A stretch of DNA of 11,750 nucleotides from a virus (IMGVR_UViG_2585427760_000003), one strand, 5' to 3'. Numbered from the stretch's first letter, positions 3,162-11,444 are shown. Notes: generated by a model from the sequence alone, not told the origin. Translations and numbers: made by a program.

Positions 3162-3524
3162 GTGAATACCTACAGCATCACATTACCCTGGCCTCCGAGC
3201 AATAATCGCTATTACCGCCATAATCGCGGGCGCACGCACGTCAGCGCAGAGGGGCAGGCATACCGCGATAACGTCGCCCGAATCATTAAAAACGCAATGC
3301 TGGATATCGGCCTGGCTATGCCTGTGAAAATCCGCATTGAGTGCCACATGCCGGATCGCCGTCGCCGTGACCTGGATAATCTGCAAAAAGCCGCTTTTGA
3401 CGCACTCACTAAAGCAGGTTTCTGGCTGGATGATGCTCAGGTCGTTGATTACCGCGTTGTGAAGATGCCTGTTACCAAAGGTGGGAGGCTGGAACTGACC
3501 ATCACCGAAATGGGGAATGAATGA
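3162..3524 (+). CDS. rusA: Holliday-junction resolvase RusA (crossover junction endodeoxyribonuclease), 120 aa, GTG start
   Basis: Translation [120 protein letters not shown] matches E. coli RusA from memory. Confidence 0.93.
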
Positions 3525-4318: not shown

Positions 4319-5401
4319 TTAGAACTGGTAAACCATACCTACAGCAACGATATCATCGGTAGCAACGCCAGATGCTTTCGTGAAATCGCTCTTATCAATC
4401 AGGTTGATTTTGTAGTCAACAAAAGTGGACATATTTTTGTTGAAGTAATAGGTTGCACCTACATCAACATATTCAACCAGGTCCTGATCACCCCAAACAC
4501 CCAAGTCTTTTCCTTTAGAATGCAGGTAAGCAACGGATGGACGCAGGCCGAAGTCGAACTGATATTGTGCAACAGCTTCGAAGTTTTGTGCTTTGTTGGC
4601 AATATGGTTATTACCAAAAACAGTCATGTTCTGGGTTTCAGAATAGGTGGTGGCCAGATAGATGTTGTTCGCATCATATTTCAGACCAGCTGCCCATACT
4701 TCAGCATTTTGACCAGAAGCATTCAGACCGTTGTTACCGTAGATAACCTGATTATTAGTGCGATCAGATTTAGCATAGGTTGCACCCACGCCGAATCCTT
4801 CATACTCATAAGTAGTTGAGAAACCGAAACCATCGCCATTAGCTTCAGTTACTTCATTTCGGTCATTTTTGCCCTGATACTGAGCTGCAAAGTTCAGGCC
4901 ATCAACCAGACCAAAGAAGTCGTTGTTACGATAAGTTGCAACACCTGTGGTGCGACCAGTCATGAACACATCTGTTTGGGTCCAGGTATCGCCACCGAAT
5001 TCTGGCAGAACGTCAGTCCACGCACCGATGTCGTATGCTACACCGTAGTTACGGCCGTAATCGATTGAGCCGTAGTCACCGAATTTCAGGCCAGCGAAGG
5101 CAAGACGGGTTTTATCTTTGGAGGAACCTTGAGATTCAGCGCGGTTGCCTTTGAATTCATATTCCCACTGACCGAAACCAGTCAGTTGATCGTTGATTTG
5201 GGTTTCACCTTTGAAGCCAAGACGGGCATAAGTAGTATCACCATCATCTGCATCATTAGAGGAGAAGTAGTGCTTAGCATTAACTTTCCCGTACAGATCC
5301 AGCTTGTTACTGTCTTTATTATAAATTTCAGCTGCCTGAGCAGACATCGCCATCAGTACTGATGCAGCTACAGCAGAAATTGCCACTGTTAATTTTTTCA
5401 T
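4319..5401 (-). CDS. nmpC: Outer-membrane general porin NmpC (OmpC/OmpF/PhoE family), apparently intact, 360 aa
   Basis: Signal peptide [23 protein letters not shown] then [16 protein letters not shown]; porin motifs throughout; C-terminal ...VGMVYQF typical of beta-barrel porins; placed on the opposite strand between Q and the lysis genes as in DLP12. Confidence 0.9.
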
Positions 5402-5974: not shown

Positions 5975-6190
5975 ATGAAATCCATGGATAAGTTAACAAC
6001 GGGTGTCGCCTATGGCACCTCAGCAGGTAGTGCCGGGTACTGGTTTTTACAGCTGCTCGATAAAGTCACGCCCTCACAGTGGGCAGCAATAGGTGTGCTG
6101 GGTAGCCTGGTATTTGGCCTGCTGACGTACCTGACAAACCTTTATTTCAAGATTAAAGAAGATAAGCGCAAGGCTGCGAGAGGTGAATAA
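5975..6190 (+). CDS. essD: Phage-21-type class II holin (pinholin S21 homolog) with dual-start motif, 71 aa
   Basis: [71 protein letters not shown]; two TM segments; Met1 and Met4 (5975 and 5984) give the holin/antiholin dual start; GAGGTGG SD upstream. Confidence 0.9.
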
Positions 6191-6687
6191 TGCCTCCATC
6201 ATTACGAAAAGCTGTTGCTGCTGCTATTGGTGGCGGGGCTATTGCTATAGCATCTGTGTTAATCACTGGCCCAAGTGGTAACGATGGTCTGGAAGGTGTG
6301 AGACATAATCCTTACAAAGACATAGTTGGTGTATGGACTGTATGTTACGGGCATACAGGAAAAGACATCATTCCCGGTAAAACGTATACCGAAGCAGAGT
6401 GCAAAGCCCTCCTGAATAAAGACCTTGCCACTGTCGCCAGACAAATTAACCGGTACATCAAAGTCGATATACCGGAAACAACGCGCGGCGCTCTTTACTC
6501 GTTCGTCTACAACGTGGGTGCTGGCAATTTCAGAACATCGACGCTTCTTCGCAAAATAAACCAGGGTGATATTAAAGGCGCATGTGATCAGCTACGGCGC
6601 TGGACATACGCTGGCGGTAATCAATGGAAAGGACTGATGACTCGCCGTGAGATTGAGCGTGAAGTCTGTTTGTGGGGGAAACAATGA
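6190..6687 (+). CDS. rrrD: SAR endolysin (T4-lysozyme-like muramidase with N-terminal signal-anchor-release domain), 165 aa
   Basis: N-terminal Gly/Ala-rich hydrophobic SAR segment [20 protein letters not shown] followed by lysozyme catalytic region [23 protein letters not shown]; start overlaps the essD stop (TAATG). Confidence 0.9.
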
Positions 6688-7142
6688 GCAGAGTAACCGC
6701 GATTATCTCCGCTCTGGTTATCTGCATCATCGTCTGCCTGTCATTGGCTGTTAATCATTACCGTGATAACGCAATCGCCTACAAAGAGCAGCGCGATAAC
6801 AAGGCCAGTGAACTGGAGAAGGCGAACGCCACCATCGCTGACATGCGGAAGCGTCAACGTGATGTAGCAGAACTCGACGCAAGATACACAAAGGAGCTTG
6901 CTGATGCTAACGCGACTATCGAAAGTCTCCGTGCTGATGTTTCTGCTGGGCGTAAGCGCCTGCAAGTCGCCGCCACCTGTGCAAAGTCAACGACCGGAGC
7001 CAGCGGCATGGGCGATGGAGAAAGCCCAGGACTTACAGCAGATGCTGAACTCAATTATTACCGTCTCCGAAGTGGAATCGACAAGATAACCGCGCAGGTT
7101 AACTACCTGCAGGAATACATCAGGACGCAATGCCTGAAATAA
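6684..7142 (+). CDS. rzpD: Spanin inner-membrane subunit Rz (i-spanin), 152 aa
   Basis: ATG overlaps the rrrD stop (ATGA); N-terminal TM segment [20 protein letters not shown] then coiled-coil-like periplasmic domain; ORF track starts at an upstream GTG (6672). Confidence 0.85.
6904..7089 (+). CDS. rzoD: Spanin outer-membrane lipoprotein subunit Rz1 (o-spanin), embedded in the +1 frame of rzpD, 61 aa
   Basis: AAGGAG SD at 6891-6896, ATG at 6904; lipoprotein signal [20 protein letters not shown] with lipobox Cys, proline-rich mature region [13 protein letters not shown]; fully nested inside rzpD. Confidence 0.75.
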
Positions 7143-7174
7143 TTTTTTTGCAAATCACAAAGTCCATTTAATGA

Positions 7175-7198
7175 GCCTCGCGATGCGGGGCTTTTTTT
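7175..7198 (+). terminator. Rho-independent terminator after the lysis cassette
   Basis: GCCTCGC-GAT-GCGGGGC stem-loop (7 bp including one G-U) followed by TTTTTTT, ~33 bp downstream of the rzpD stop. Confidence 0.65.
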
Positions 7199-7437: not shown

Positions 7438-7836
7438 ATGGAATTGGCAAGTGAATTTTCTGGCATGCTTAAGTCGTCAGGTGTTCGGTCAGCGTTCTTT
7501 GTTGAAATGCTGATGCACGGCGGACTTATGGCAACAATGAGACGTGTAATGGAAGACCAGAGAAAAGAACCTCCTCAGGTATACGTTTTGTCATCGAAGA
7601 AAACTGGGCTAACCAAAATTGGGTATTCATCCAACATTCCACAACGCATCAAATCGCTTGGCAACTCTGGACCAGACTGCTTGAAGCTTGAGTGCCTGAT
7701 CCCTGGTGGAAGAGAAACTGAAAACATGCTTCATCGCAAATTTGCCGCAAAGAGAAAGCACGGTGAATGGTTCGCCCTGTCCAAGGATGACATTGAGGGA
7801 TTGAAATCTGTAGCGATTACTTCTGATGGCTATTAA
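7438..7836 (+). CDS. T5orf172 / GIY-YIG-like domain protein, 132 aa (cargo gene at the position occupied by bor in lambda)
   Basis: C-terminal ~85 residues QVYVLSSKKTGLTKIGYSSNIPQRIKSLGNSGPDCLKLECLIPGGRETENMLHRKFAAKRKHGEWFALSKDDIEGL fit the T5orf172 pattern as I recall it (YVL...KIGYT/S...R...EWF); weak SD; an upstream in-frame 24-codon ORF (7348-7422) is separated by a single TAA. Confidence 0.6.
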   Translation: MELASEFSGMLKSSGVRSAFFVEMLMHGGLMATMRRVMEDQRKEPPQVYVLSSKKTGLTKIGYSSNIPQRIKSLGNSGPDCLKLECLIPGGRETENMLHRKFAAKRKHGEWFALSKDDIEGLKSVAITSDGY

Positions 7837-8514
7837 TGCTTGTTTAGAGCAATTTTCATAACAACTCTTCATTACAAAGCCCATCTACTGGTGGGCTTGA
7901 TAATGAAACCGTGATTTACATCCCCACAATCCGGGTATGTAAAAGATAGTTCAGGCGAGAACGGATTTAACTAAATCTGTGCGCCACCAGTTAACGGCAG
8001 TACCACGAAACAACCCAAGCCAGTAAGTGGGGAAATAACACCGGCAGCCACTGAAAGATGAACCTCCTGCCTTATGGCAAAAAAGATTCTTTGTGGTGGC
8101 GGACTGATGGAAAGACATCCTAATTTCAGCCAAACATTGAAGGAGTTGTTATGTCAGCAGAAGGTTTCAATAACCCATCAAAATTCCGGGATGAGTGGGA
8201 TAGCAGCGTAAAGAGTAAGTGATGCCATCACAAAAGCCATTCCCTACAGAGTGGCTTTGATAATGGCTTATACCCTACACGGGATAACTTAACTGATATC
8301 CTTTTTAAAGGATAAAGGTATTCAAGCCTGACACATCATGCGCTGTATCGTCGCCGTATTCCCGTATTAACAGAGACCGTAGCCCGACGGGGAACTCCTT
8401 CTGCGCGAGTGTGCGGGAATAATCAAAAACGATGCACACCGGGGTTACCGGGTACACATATTTCATCATGCCAGCGAGTCCGGTTCTGGCACGGAAGAAA
8501 CCGGACGTTATGAT

Positions 8515-9604: not shown

Positions 9605-10429
9605 ATGGAAGTCAACAAAAAGCAGCTGGCTGACATTTTCGGTGCGAGTATCCGTACCATTCAGAACTGGCAGGAACAGGGAATGCCCGTTCTGCGAGGC
9701 GGTGGCAAGGGTAATGAGGTGCTTTATGACTCTGCCGCCGTTATAAGATGGTATGCCGAAAGGGATGCTGAAATTGAGAACGAAAAGCTGCGCCGGGAAG
9801 TTGAAGAACTGCGGCAGGCCAGCGAGACAGATCTCCAGCCAGGGACTATTGAGTACGAACGCCATCGACTTACGCGTGCGCAGGCCGACGCACAGGAGCT
9901 GAAAAATGCCAGAGACTCCGCTGAAGTGGTGGAAACCGCATTCTGTACTTTCGTGCTGTCGCGGATCGCAGGTGAAATTGCCAGTATTCTCGACGGGATC
10001 CCCCTGTCGGTGCAGCGGCGTTTCCCGAACGGCACGGTCGATGTGTTCCGCGGCTGGGTCAGCAGTATCGGTAAGGCGGTGACGGCGAAGGAAGTGATTA
10101 CCCGCACGGTGAAAGTCACCAACGTAGGACGTCCGTCGATGGCAGAAGATCGCAGCACGGTAACAGCGGCAACCGGCATGACCGTGACGCCTGCCAGCAC
10201 CTCGGTGGTGAAAGGGCAGAGCACGACGCTGACCGTGGCATTCCAGCCGGAAGGCGCAACCGACAAGAGCTTCCGTGCGGTGTCTGCGGATAAAACAAAA
10301 GCCACCGTGTCGGTCAGTGGTATGACCATCACCGTGAAAGGTGTTGCTGCAGGCAAGGTCAACATTCCGGTCGTATCCGGTAATGGTGAGTTTGCTGCGG
10401 TTGCAGAAATCAACGTCACCGCCAGTTAA
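9605..10429 (+). CDS. nohD: Chimeric ORF: terminase small subunit Nu1 homolog (residues ~1-140) fused in frame to the C-terminal Ig-like (Big_2) domain of major tail protein V; 274 aa
   Basis: [46 protein letters not shown]...[14 protein letters not shown] matches lambda Nu1; from ...[60 protein letters not shown]... to ...AEINVTAS matches the lambda gpV C-terminus from memory; switch at ~10018-10027 within shared CGTTTCCCG. The nohD symbol applies to the Nu1-like part only. Confidence 0.85.
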
Positions 10430-10805: not shown

Positions 10806-11390
10806 ATGGCATTCAGAATGAGTGAACAACCACGGACCATAAAAATTTATAATCTGCTGGCCGGAACTAATGAATTTATTGGTGAAGGTGATGCATATAT
10901 TCCGCCTCATACAGGTCTGCCAGCAAACAGTACCGATATTGCACCGCCAGATATTCCTGCTGGCTTTGTGGCTGTTTTCAACAGTGATGAGGCATCGTGG
11001 CATCTCGTTGAAGACCATCGGGGTAAAACGGTTTATGACGTAGCGTCAGGGGACGCGTTATTTATTTCTGAACTCGGTCCGTTACCGGAAAATGTTACCT
11101 GGTTATCGCCGGAAGGGGAGTTTCAGAAGTGGAACGGCACAGCCTGGGTGAAAGATGCAGAAGCAGAAAAACTGTTCCGGATCCGGGAGGCGGAAGAAAC
11201 AAAAAACAGCCTGATGCAGGTAGCCAGTGAGCATATTGCGCCACTTCAGGATGCTGTAGATCTGGAAATCGCAACGGAGGAAGAAACCTCATTGCTGGAA
11301 GCCTGGAAAAAGTATCGGGTGTTGCTGAACCGTGTTGATACATCAACTGCACCTGATATTGAGTGGCCTACGAACCCTGTCAGGGAGTAA
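10806..11390 (+). CDS. tfaD: Tail fiber assembly protein Tfa, 194 aa, intact
   Basis: [79 protein letters not shown]... is near-identical to lambda Tfa with scattered substitutions; ATG overlaps the stf-frame stop (TAATG). The tfaD symbol is by synteny with DLP12. Confidence 0.85.
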
Positions 11391-11444
11391 TCATTGGGAT
11401 TATGCCGCAGCACGTCTTAAGCAAGAACGTGCTGCGGTTGGATG

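Follow-up and report, generated by a model that had tools for sequence, protein, structure and literature searches.

Between the lysis and packaging genes of a lambdoid prophage, the viral sequence IMGVR_UViG_2585427760_000003 carries two related stem-loops, each accompanied by GATAATG and each lying downstream of an open reading frame (ORF). What are these elements, and why are there two of them? The stretch analysed, hereafter the window, comprises 11,750 nt, and Pfam matches together with gene order identify the region concerned as the late part of the prophage. The original prediction, made from this sequence alone, took the pair for a duplicated cis element and offered four roles: RNA processing, protein binding, a terminator variant or the boundaries of inserted cargo. 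Here we report that the two hairpins are copies of one conserved family with covarying stems, that they bound a cargo interval missing as a block from some phages and that the family appears to act on the sense strand.

Two hairpins of one conserved family

Both hairpins lie where they had first been placed. The first, AAGCCCA-tctactgg-TGGGCTT plus GATAATG at 7877-7905, is 40 nt past the stop codon of a T5orf172 ORF, and the second, AAAGCCA-ttccctacagag-TGGCTTT plus GATAATG at 8233-8265, is 10 nt past a 23-codon ORF (8151-8222). However, GATAATG is not the separate 3′ flank that it had seemed, but the 3′ half of a lower stem: it pairs with the CATTAC or CATCAC preceding each hairpin, and the whole is therefore a two-tier stem-loop larger than first described. 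The element measures 40–44 nt and consists of a 5–7-bp lower stem, a 2 × 2 CA/GA internal loop, a 9–10-bp upper stem and a loop. In the window, its two copies are built as follows, with upper-stem lengths that count G·U pairs.

7868-7907, plus strand: hairpin 1, a type A copy, found as an inverted repeat, by RNA folding and as a covariance-model match.
7868-7874 with 7901-7907, plus strand: lower stem of hairpin 1; internal loop CA (7875-7876) / GA (7899-7900).
7877-7885 with 7890-7898, plus strand: upper stem of hairpin 1, 9 bp with one U·G pair; loop UACU (7886-7889).
8224-8267, plus strand: hairpin 2, a type B copy, found as an inverted repeat, by RNA folding and as a covariance-model match.
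8224-8230 with 8261-8267, plus strand: lower stem of hairpin 2, with one C/A mismatch; internal loop CA (8231-8232) / GA (8259-8260).
8233-8242 with 8249-8258, plus strand: upper stem of hairpin 2, 10 bp with a conserved U·G pair (8240/8251); loop CCUACA (8243-8248).

Folded as RNA, hairpin 1 reached −22.2 kcal/mol (z −7.6) and hairpin 2 −21.1 kcal/mol (z −4.7), and none of 200 shuffled sequences was as stable in either case. GATAATG alone is only mildly enriched (5 matches versus 1.6 expected), and the CTAC shared by the two loops proved incidental, because the loop varies within the family (UACG, UACU, AAU, ACU, AUU, CCUACA).

A covariance model built solely from hairpin-2-like sequences of other loci, with no type A sequence included, recovered both hairpins on the plus strand, with 39.6 bits for hairpin 1 (E = 4 × 10−9) and 57 bits for hairpin 2 (E = 4.5 × 10−14). 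The two are thus related cis elements, as had been proposed, and chance similarity is excluded. Scanning the 11.75-kb window with this model gave no third copy at E < 0.01, the next match being the reverse strand of hairpin 2 (E = 0.011). The pair did not arise by local duplication, as first thought; the hairpins are instead diverged type A and type B members of a widespread family. A type A copy (like hairpin 1) followed 196–855 bp on by a type B or C copy (like hairpin 2) was seen in 37 loci or strands, window included, with constant order and orientation. Type C, found in P22 and HK97, reads GAGGCCAUUY-AAU-GAGUGGYCUC, and type D, from other contigs, reads GCAGGCAUUC-AAU-GAGUGCCUGY and has the same CAUUACA and GAUAAUG feet within unrelated flanks. 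The family consensus is 5′-(G/C)CAUUA-CA-[N5-CAUUC]-loop-[GAGUG-N′5]-GA-UAAUG(C/G)-3′.

Stem covariation in homologous loci, the check named in advance, was strongly positive. In an unambiguous alignment of 51 distinct B, C and D copies over 44 columns, 95.8% of the cells of the two-tier structure formed standard pairs, as compared with 34–47% when the 3′ partners were slid by 1–3 columns. Compensatory changes, on both sides, occurred at 9 of the 17 pairs; the covariation score was 0.391 versus 0.191 for shuffled alignments, none of 500 shuffles reaching 0.391, and RNAalifold returned the identical two-tier fold. In the upper stem, the outermost 5 bp occur in at least eight complementary versions (AAAGC/GCUUU, GCAGG/CCUGY, ACAGG/CCUGU, GGAGC/GCUUC, GAGGU/GCCUC, GGUGG/UCACC, AGAGU/GCUCU and GAGRC/GYCUC). 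Since the sequence filter demanded upper-stem pairing and a fixed CAUUC/GAGUG/GAUAAU, independent support comes from the lower stem, which lay outside all selection and covaries (A-U, G·U or G-C at one pair; GC, CG, UG, UA or AU at another), from unselected variants with a covarying 'constant' top that the model search found (for example, GGUGGCCUUC/GAGGGUCACC), and from the unfiltered two-class genome scan described below.

Scanning the whole window against Rfam 15 with cmscan (E ≤ 1) returned IS009, a tRNA and three weak unrelated matches, and no family for the hairpins; the lone overlap, at 8206-8280, was a chance match to mir-458 on the minus strand (E = 0.93). No description of the hairpin emerged when the literature was searched by sequence string and by topic. 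The family is undescribed and lies outside the existing Rfam families.

Distribution and genomic place

The search for the motif in related prophages that the original prediction proposed revealed it to be widespread in lambdoid and P22-like phages. Segment 7870-8316 is >90% identical in >200 phage records, where it is mostly unannotated; phages that carry it are HK97, HK106, HK620, Sf6, P22, ST64T, L and the Stx2 phages. Among 5426 complete E. coli genomes, 2410 (~44%) contain part of the segment.

Scanning one genome per species placed the motif in prophages of about 20 Enterobacterales genera. About 30 matches combined full stem complementarity with the CAUUACA foot, and came from Serratia, Leclercia, Raoultella, Phytobacter, Kluyvera, Erwinia, Citrobacter, Pectobacterium, Enterobacillus, Enterobacter, Kosakonia, Chimaeribacter, Atlantibacter, Rahnella, Mangrovibacter, Entomohabitans, Klebsiella and Brenneria, plus a few evidently mis-binned contigs. 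The other ~90, in unrelated phyla, had neither the stem pairing nor the foot and serve as an internal negative control. In this unfiltered scan, stem pairing went with a CAUUA-like 5′ foot (29/4 versus 20/67, Fisher p = 8 × 10−11), and the true matches were from Enterobacterales or from evidently mis-binned contigs. A scan with ATTCAATGAGTG gave mostly unrelated coding matches. Three contigs of metagenome-assembled genomes, assigned to Cellvibrionaceae (L311), Nanosynbacter (L315) and Advenella (L337), carry the motif within ~45-nt flanks identical to those of an enterobacterial prophage, and its presence in these genomes is probably binning contamination.

At every locus examined, the motif lies after the holin-endolysin-Rz genes and before HNH or terminase genes, co-oriented with the lysis genes. 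The complete genomes of HK97 and Sf6 contain two copies each, both between Rz and the packaging genes, and the motif was not found in the K-12 prophages DLP12 and Qin, the former having borD in that slot. The motif has no constant companion among phage genes, the Q, lysis gene and packaging types each differing between loci, which suggests a host factor, or general recombination, as its partner.

Motif arrays extend beyond the A-then-B pair of the E. coli phages. A locus of Kluyvera sichuanensis (L340) has three copies, of types A, D and A, at 4902, 5152 and 6619, the first following an ORF that, on inspection of its sequence, resembles an Rz1-type lipoprotein, and a further locus (L179) has two copies of mixed types at 7099 and 7987.

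The hairpins bound a cargo indel

The interval between the hairpins and its 3′ neighbour contain the following features.

7906-8265, plus strand: cargo interval of 360 bp bounded by the two GATAATG copies.
7985-8119, plus strand: ultra-conserved non-coding block ACGGCAG...GGAAAGACATC, 126–135 nt, >95% alike.
8140-8145 and 8151-8222, plus strand: AAGGAG Shine-Dalgarno sequence and predicted 23-codon ORF MSAEGFNNPSKFRDEWDSSVKSK.
8266-8316, plus strand: conserved downstream linker GCTTATACCCTACACGGGATAACTTAACTGATATCC(T/C)TTTTAA(A/C)GGATAAA, ~50 nt (RNA fold of 8220-8330).

That the hairpins might be boundaries of inserted cargo is borne out by Stx2 phage 1717, which lacks exactly the 360 bp between the GATAATG copies, indicating that the hairpins bound a cargo indel and that 7906-8265 is a single one. 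In this phage and its relatives, hairpin 1 is followed at once by GCTTATACCC, the interval having gone as a block: the sequence of phage 1717 reads …GTAG-CCATTACAAAGCCCATCTACTGGTGGGCTTGATAATG-GCTTATACCCTACACGGG…, hairpin 1 being joined directly to the flank that follows hairpin 2, with the crossover inside the shared TTGATAATG. We read the junction directly in locus L005 (1500-1600); query positions 11-461 span just ~93 bp in the Stx2 phages, PhiR49_1 and ev099, and the 360-bp spacing recurs in seven loci or strands, window included.

In the E. coli, Shigella and Salmonella phages, the sequence after hairpin A begins with AAACCG and continues with an optional 78-nt piece (present in the window, 7906-7984) and then the 126–135-nt block, after which comes either hairpin C directly or more cargo and hairpin B. 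The additional cargo of the window is the 23-codon ORF, whose stop codon lies 3 nt before the CATCA of hairpin 2; the ORF-hairpin junction recurs in 14 fetched loci, and the ORF is possibly real, a micro-protein cargo. The linker follows hairpin B or C in most of these phages, where the downstream genes differ. Within it, two small hairpins, CCCUACACGGG and AUCCUUUUUAAAGGAU, are predicted. The block itself occurs in 37 variants, all >95% alike (P22, HK97, Sf6, HK620 and many prophages), with frame-breaking 1–2-nt indels in homopolymer runs and no excess of predicted RNA structure on either strand; in P22 it lies directly 3′ of rha/ORF201.

Anchoring on the downstream flank alone recovered 46 upstream contexts, which converge sharply at the 5′ foot of the hairpin. 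A same-strand ORF ends within 40 nt in 65 of 92 distinct upstream contexts, its stop codon lying 0–4 nt before CAUUA in 44 of the 65, and in most other contexts a canonical terminator (…TTTTTTATTG followed by CCATTACA) or the conserved non-coding block precedes the hairpin. The upstream ORFs form 27 sequence clusters, at least 20 of them plausible proteins, with Pfam matches that include Rha+ORF11CD3, Tad2-like anti-Thoeris proteins, the N4 gp49/Sf6 gp66 family, DUF2560 and DUF6979; one cluster, by sequence inspection, resembles an Rz1-type lipoprotein. In the lower stem, the 5′ half differs according to the cargo upstream and the 3′ half goes with the downstream backbone, a pattern in the sequences which suggests that crossovers fall inside the hairpin.

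The Tad2-like gene lies upstream of hairpin A in an IMG/VR contig (L208) and in locus L015, in the slot that T5orf172 occupies in the window, and in phage Huey an annotated anti-CRISPR (clustered regularly interspaced short palindromic repeats) gene lies under the homologous region. The slot between lysis and packaging genes forms a hot spot of anti-defence functions.

The element probably acts on the sense strand

The U·G pair of the upper stem is retained in 50 of the 51 aligned copies. In the set anchored solely on the downstream flank, all four C-to-U stem variants preserve pairing on the plus strand only and become C·A mismatches on the minus strand. Likewise, the minus strands of hairpins 2 and 1 score 17.1 and 10 bits, respectively, with the model, 30–40 bits under the plus strand, and most type A copies have the loop cUACGg, of the UNCG type. 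Together, these results indicate that the functional strand is the sense strand of the lysis genes, and that the element acts on the sense (late mRNA) strand, most simply as RNA.

A proposed processing signal and homology patch

Of the roles first offered, that of a cassette boundary stands, the evidence speaks against that of a terminator, and the remainder is narrowed to a function that we infer to lie on the plus strand. Our preferred reading, tentative and with a chance that falls just short of even, is that the hairpin is a processing or stability signal of the late transcript read by a host factor, and that the repeats additionally provide homology for cargo exchange. The host factor would recognise the hairpin in the Q-antiterminated late polycistronic RNA, as a 'punctuation' signal. 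A layout of a 10-bp helix, a 2 × 2 loop and a 5–7-bp helix would fit an RNase III-type site, in shape although with a total length at the lower limit, or a barrier to 3′-exonucleases. Either type of site would fix the termini of the lysis and accessory mRNA segments along with their half-lives, and possibly also those of the RNA between one copy and the next. As the same ~40 nt recurs beside unrelated cargo, the element would work, at least passively, as a short homology patch, and recombination through it would swap, insert or delete cargo such as the 360 bp of the window.

Small-RNA-seq of P22 infection detected a 204-nt plus-strand RNA, P22G (21,873-22,076), a read-coverage feature of unassigned function that covers the end of rha and the block (PMC13397905, 2026). 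P22G ends at …GAGGCCAU, in the 5′ arm of the P22 hairpin (22,060-22,100 by our coordinates). This shows that the region, homologous to that of the window and overlapped by P22G through the block and the 5′ arm, accumulates as sense RNA in P22 and is bounded at the hairpin; that paper (PMC13397905) describes neither a hairpin family nor how it is structured and distributed.

Several observations weigh against a processing signal. The paired helix amounts to 17–19 bp-equivalents, at the short end for RNase III. The 3′ end of P22G, inside the hairpin, is not where a simple exonuclease barrier would leave it, nor where RNase III would cut at the internal loop, and as evidence of an RNA end it may be an artefact of read coverage. 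The minus strands of the window's hairpins also fold well (−18.9 and −24 kcal/mol), so the assignment of the strand rests on the family and not on these two copies, and the element may have a DNA-hairpin role, as G·T pairs are also tolerated in single-stranded DNA. Moreover, the conservation of CAUUC, GAGUG and GAUAAU is partly a matter of ascertainment, since the filter fixed these letters. Lastly, the element may no longer be in use in the window, which belongs to a defective prophage.

Alternative explanations

The closeness of many hairpins to stop codons raises the alternative of translational control, in which a hairpin 0–4 nt after the stop would hinder the terminating ribosome, thereby lowering or coupling the expression of the cargo gene, or form the operator of an RNA-binding protein. 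We consider this unlikely, even though the stop codon is adjacent in 44 of the 65 contexts with an upstream ORF and in many cases shares the first base pair of the lower stem. What precedes many copies is a rho-independent terminator or the 135-nt non-coding block rather than an ORF, hairpin 1 itself begins its upper stem 40 nt past the stop of T5orf172, the motif has no candidate binding protein that co-occurs with it and as a start codon the ATG in GATAATG is not conserved; strand specificity and covariation fit any RNA-level role, this one included. A precedent would be the repetitive extragenic palindromic (REP) elements, which, within 15 nt of a stop codon, reportedly hinder translation, as Liang, Rudd and Deutscher are said to have described in Mol Cell in 2015.

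A bolder proposition, which we likewise find rather improbable, is a dedicated system of temperate enterobacterial phages in which hairpins bound cassettes of accessory and anti-defence genes, the hairpin being an active signal for RNA processing or for DNA-hairpin recombination. If true, the hairpin would insulate cargo expression within the late transcript and direct the capture and exchange of cargo, making the system a phage counterpart of integron attC sites or of the stem-loop cassettes of T4-type phages (see below), run by host factors only.

Quite unlikely, in our view, is a site of DNA-level recombination that works as an extruded single-stranded hairpin, in the manner of integron attC or of IS200/IS605 insertion sequences, and delimits true cassettes. 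Ordinary or Red/Erf-type recombination over 30–40 nt of identity explains the precise 360-bp indel bounded by GATAATG copies, which such a site would also produce, and the finding of the same hairpin downstream of unrelated ORFs fits a fixed backbone with variable insertions. The sharp breaks of homology among phages at both hairpin feet, and a lower stem whose 5′ half varies with the cargo while its 3′ half stays with the backbone, agree with a DNA site, as does the attC-like layout of a conserved foot, an unpaired spacer and a variable upper stem, placed after an ORF in one orientation. Nevertheless, no integron integrase, Y1 transposase or dedicated recombinase adjoins the motif, the integrase of the window being the prophage Int at tRNA-Arg; attC R-box sequences were not found, and the UNCG-type loops and near-invariant U·G point to RNA.

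It is highly improbable that the motif is a degenerate or weak, perhaps bidirectional, terminator, with hairpin 2 ending the convergent orf54-DUF1398 transcript of the minus strand, and kept mainly as a relic of moron terminators. The hairpins, with stems of 9–10 bp and energies of −21 to −22 kcal/mol, do have the G+C-rich stem-loop of an intrinsic terminator, flanked by A- and T-rich runs. However, as the original prediction had noted, no U-tract follows the stem of either hairpin, GAUAAUG occupying that position in nearly all copies of the window and the family, and the terminator scan calls neither hairpin, on either strand, while calling 7173-7193. On the minus strand, UUUUGUGAUGG comes after hairpin 2, which is 40 nt beyond the stop codon of the ORF at 8305-8469, but U-tracts are missing from the plus strand of every type and from the minus strand of types C and D, and the conserved U·G becomes a C·A mismatch there. 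The motif often stands directly after a canonical terminator, where another would be redundant, and the conservation of CAUUACA/GAUAAUG across genera is unexpected for a relic. A single variant, from Erwinia rhapontici (L282, 5090-5129, minus strand), ~380 nt from an ordinary copy, has the same frame, a UUCG loop, a replacement of the internal-loop GA and a real U-tract, GGCUUUUUUAAUGG, which make it a canonical terminator; its sequence hints that the motif and intrinsic terminators may interconvert.

Very unlikely as well is that the hairpins are the end-signals of a discrete non-coding RNA of ~240–400 nt, with A marking its 5′ end, B or C its 3′ end and the 135-nt block as its core. Hairpin A of the E. 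coli, Shigella and Salmonella phages is nearly always followed by an interval with the block, and this in turn by hairpin C or by cargo and hairpin B, and P22G covers the block and ends at the hairpin. Yet P22 has the block and hairpin C with no hairpin A, and P22G starts inside rha; type D copies (Pectobacterium, Serratia, Kluyvera and others) come without the block, the Stx2 phages retain a single hairpin and no block, and the block gives no structure signal.

The remaining candidates were rejected. The ATG of GATAATG as a start codon, or TGA-TAA as the end of an ORF, fails because the downstream frames are short and unconserved and the spacing to the upstream stop varies; a promoter (GATAAT as −10 or TTGATA as −35), because no acceptable partner hexamer exists and the scan finds none; and small RNAs of the Pas, AgvB or AsxR type, because these lie upstream of the holin gene and gave no Rfam match. 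A small ORF, MAKKILCGGGLMERH..., that runs through the P22 and HK97 hairpin is not conserved coding sequence, as indels in its A-run shift the frame, and the frame of a hydrophobic peptide on the reverse strand of the 135-nt block is broken in P22. A mimic of CRISPR repeats, acting as an RNA anti-CRISPR, was set aside on a stem and loop that differ by eye from type I-E and I-F repeats, the GATAA...AAACCG resemblance after hairpin 1 being vague, and mimicry of a tRNA or anticodon arm on loops that are, by eye, unfit.

The window as a defective prophage

The genes around the hairpins are arranged as follows.

5975-6190, plus strand: P21-type holin (Pfam).
6190-6687, plus strand: lysozyme (Pfam).
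6672-7142, plus strand: Rz (Pfam).
7173-7193, plus strand: canonical intrinsic terminator after Rz, GAGCCTCGCGATGCGGGGCTT plus TTTTTT (terminator scan).
7438-7836, plus strand: T5orf172/MUG113 (GIY-YIG-like) ORF, in the slot between Rz and hairpin 1 (Pfam).
8305-8469, minus strand: 54-codon ORF downstream of hairpin 2.
9605-10429: chimeric ORF, an N-terminal 145 aa of Nu1 (terminase small subunit) with a C-terminal tail-tube end and Big_2 Ig-like domain.
10806-11390: tail-fibre assembly ORF, after the Nu1 chimera.

The T5orf172 ORF has a homolog in gp64 of HK106, and other phages have different genes in that slot. Downstream of the hairpins, a DUF1398 (ybcV-like) gene lies on the minus strand beside the 54-codon ORF, and upstream are a tRNA-Arg(TCT) gene and an integrase gene; the latter, the sole one in the window, encodes a phage-type Int and is 5.7 kb from the hairpins. 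The C-terminus of the Nu1 chimera joins the final part of a lambda-type tail tube protein to a Big_2 Ig-like domain, and the chimera is the scar of a deletion that took most of the structural genes. From this ORF and the surrounding gene content, we conclude that the prophage is heavily deleted, defective and DLP12-like, at tRNA-Arg TCT.

The window also contains an intact NmpC-like general porin gene (4319-5401, minus strand) between the early region and the lysis genes; in DLP12 of K-12, nmpC is interrupted by IS5 at the matching position. A full-length Rfam match to IS009 (11149-11347, 229 bits) falls within the tail-fibre assembly ORF, and a weak, partial match to CssrB (11374-11436) follows it.

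Significance and comparison with known systems

Lambdoid and P22-like phages have an accessory-gene hot spot in their lysis-packaging interval, which in the loci seen here contains Rha, Tad2-like anti-Thoeris, gp49/66 and nuclease-like T5orf172 genes, with many others unassigned. The stem-loop can be used to locate such cargo in prophages, may account for cargo exchange that leaves the late operon intact, and adds a new candidate to the RNA motifs awaiting Rfam-type curation. Should it prove to be a processing signal, the lambdoid late transcript would provide a rare documented example of post-transcriptional segmentation.

The REP elements and bacterial interspersed mosaic elements (BIMEs) of E. 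coli and Salmonella are also extragenic imperfect palindromes of 35–40 nt with an internal mismatch, placed in intergenic DNA that is transcribed and often near a stop codon. REPs stabilise the upstream mRNA, lower translation if close to a stop codon and serve as recombination substrates; hundreds of them are dispersed over a chromosome, linked to RAYT transposases. The motif, in contrast, occurs in two, rarely three, copies per phage within one interval, it differs by eye from the REP consensus, and no RAYT was noticed near it, though no search aimed at one was made. A second, possible resemblance is to the signals of RNase III, such as T7 R1.1-type sites and lambda sib, which are intercistronic in long phage transcripts and have two coaxial helices, about two turns in total, with a small internal loop, although their sequences are unrelated and the helix of the motif is shorter (10 + 5–7 bp). 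Cleavage by RNase III in T7 leaves a 3′ hairpin that stabilises the upstream mRNA.

Other systems are closer in their behaviour within genomes. According to Arbiol, Comeau and Krisch, who reportedly described them in 2010, PeSL (promoter-early stem-loop) cassettes flank small ORFs in a hyperplastic region of T4-type phages, and shuffling by recombination between the repeats was proposed. The motif shares with them short repeated stem-loops that flank accessory ORFs and a proposed modular shuffling, but PeSLs combine a terminator-like stem-loop with an early promoter, whereas the motif belongs to the late operon of temperate lambdoid and P22-like phages and no sigma-70-type promoter-like site was found at or beside either hairpin in the scan. 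Integron attC sites are likewise imperfect palindromes in which the foot is conserved, a spacer is unpaired and the upper stem is conserved in structure rather than sequence; like the motif, they follow promoter-less ORFs in one orientation and bound gene-sized indels. The foot of the motif is CATTA/TAATG and not RYYYAAC/GTTRRRY, and the functional strand of the motif appears to be the sense (RNA) one. No integron platform (IntI/attI/Pc) was found, the ORF lists of six other loci containing lysis genes, accessory ORFs, HNH and terminase only. Finally, the bsq 'boundary sequences' of HK620 and Sf6 are likewise short conserved sequences at module junctions of mosaic lambdoid genomes. Unlike the motif, they are defined by sequence and not by structure; those of Sf6 (bsq2-bsq7) lie in Rz, the nin region, the int region and elsewhere, and the Sf6 hairpins (2501-2540 and 3165-3208 in locus L002) are unannotated. 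By analogy, the motif would resemble a REP-type or RNase III-type intercistronic hairpin in its shape, and PeSL or attC repeats in its genome dynamics.

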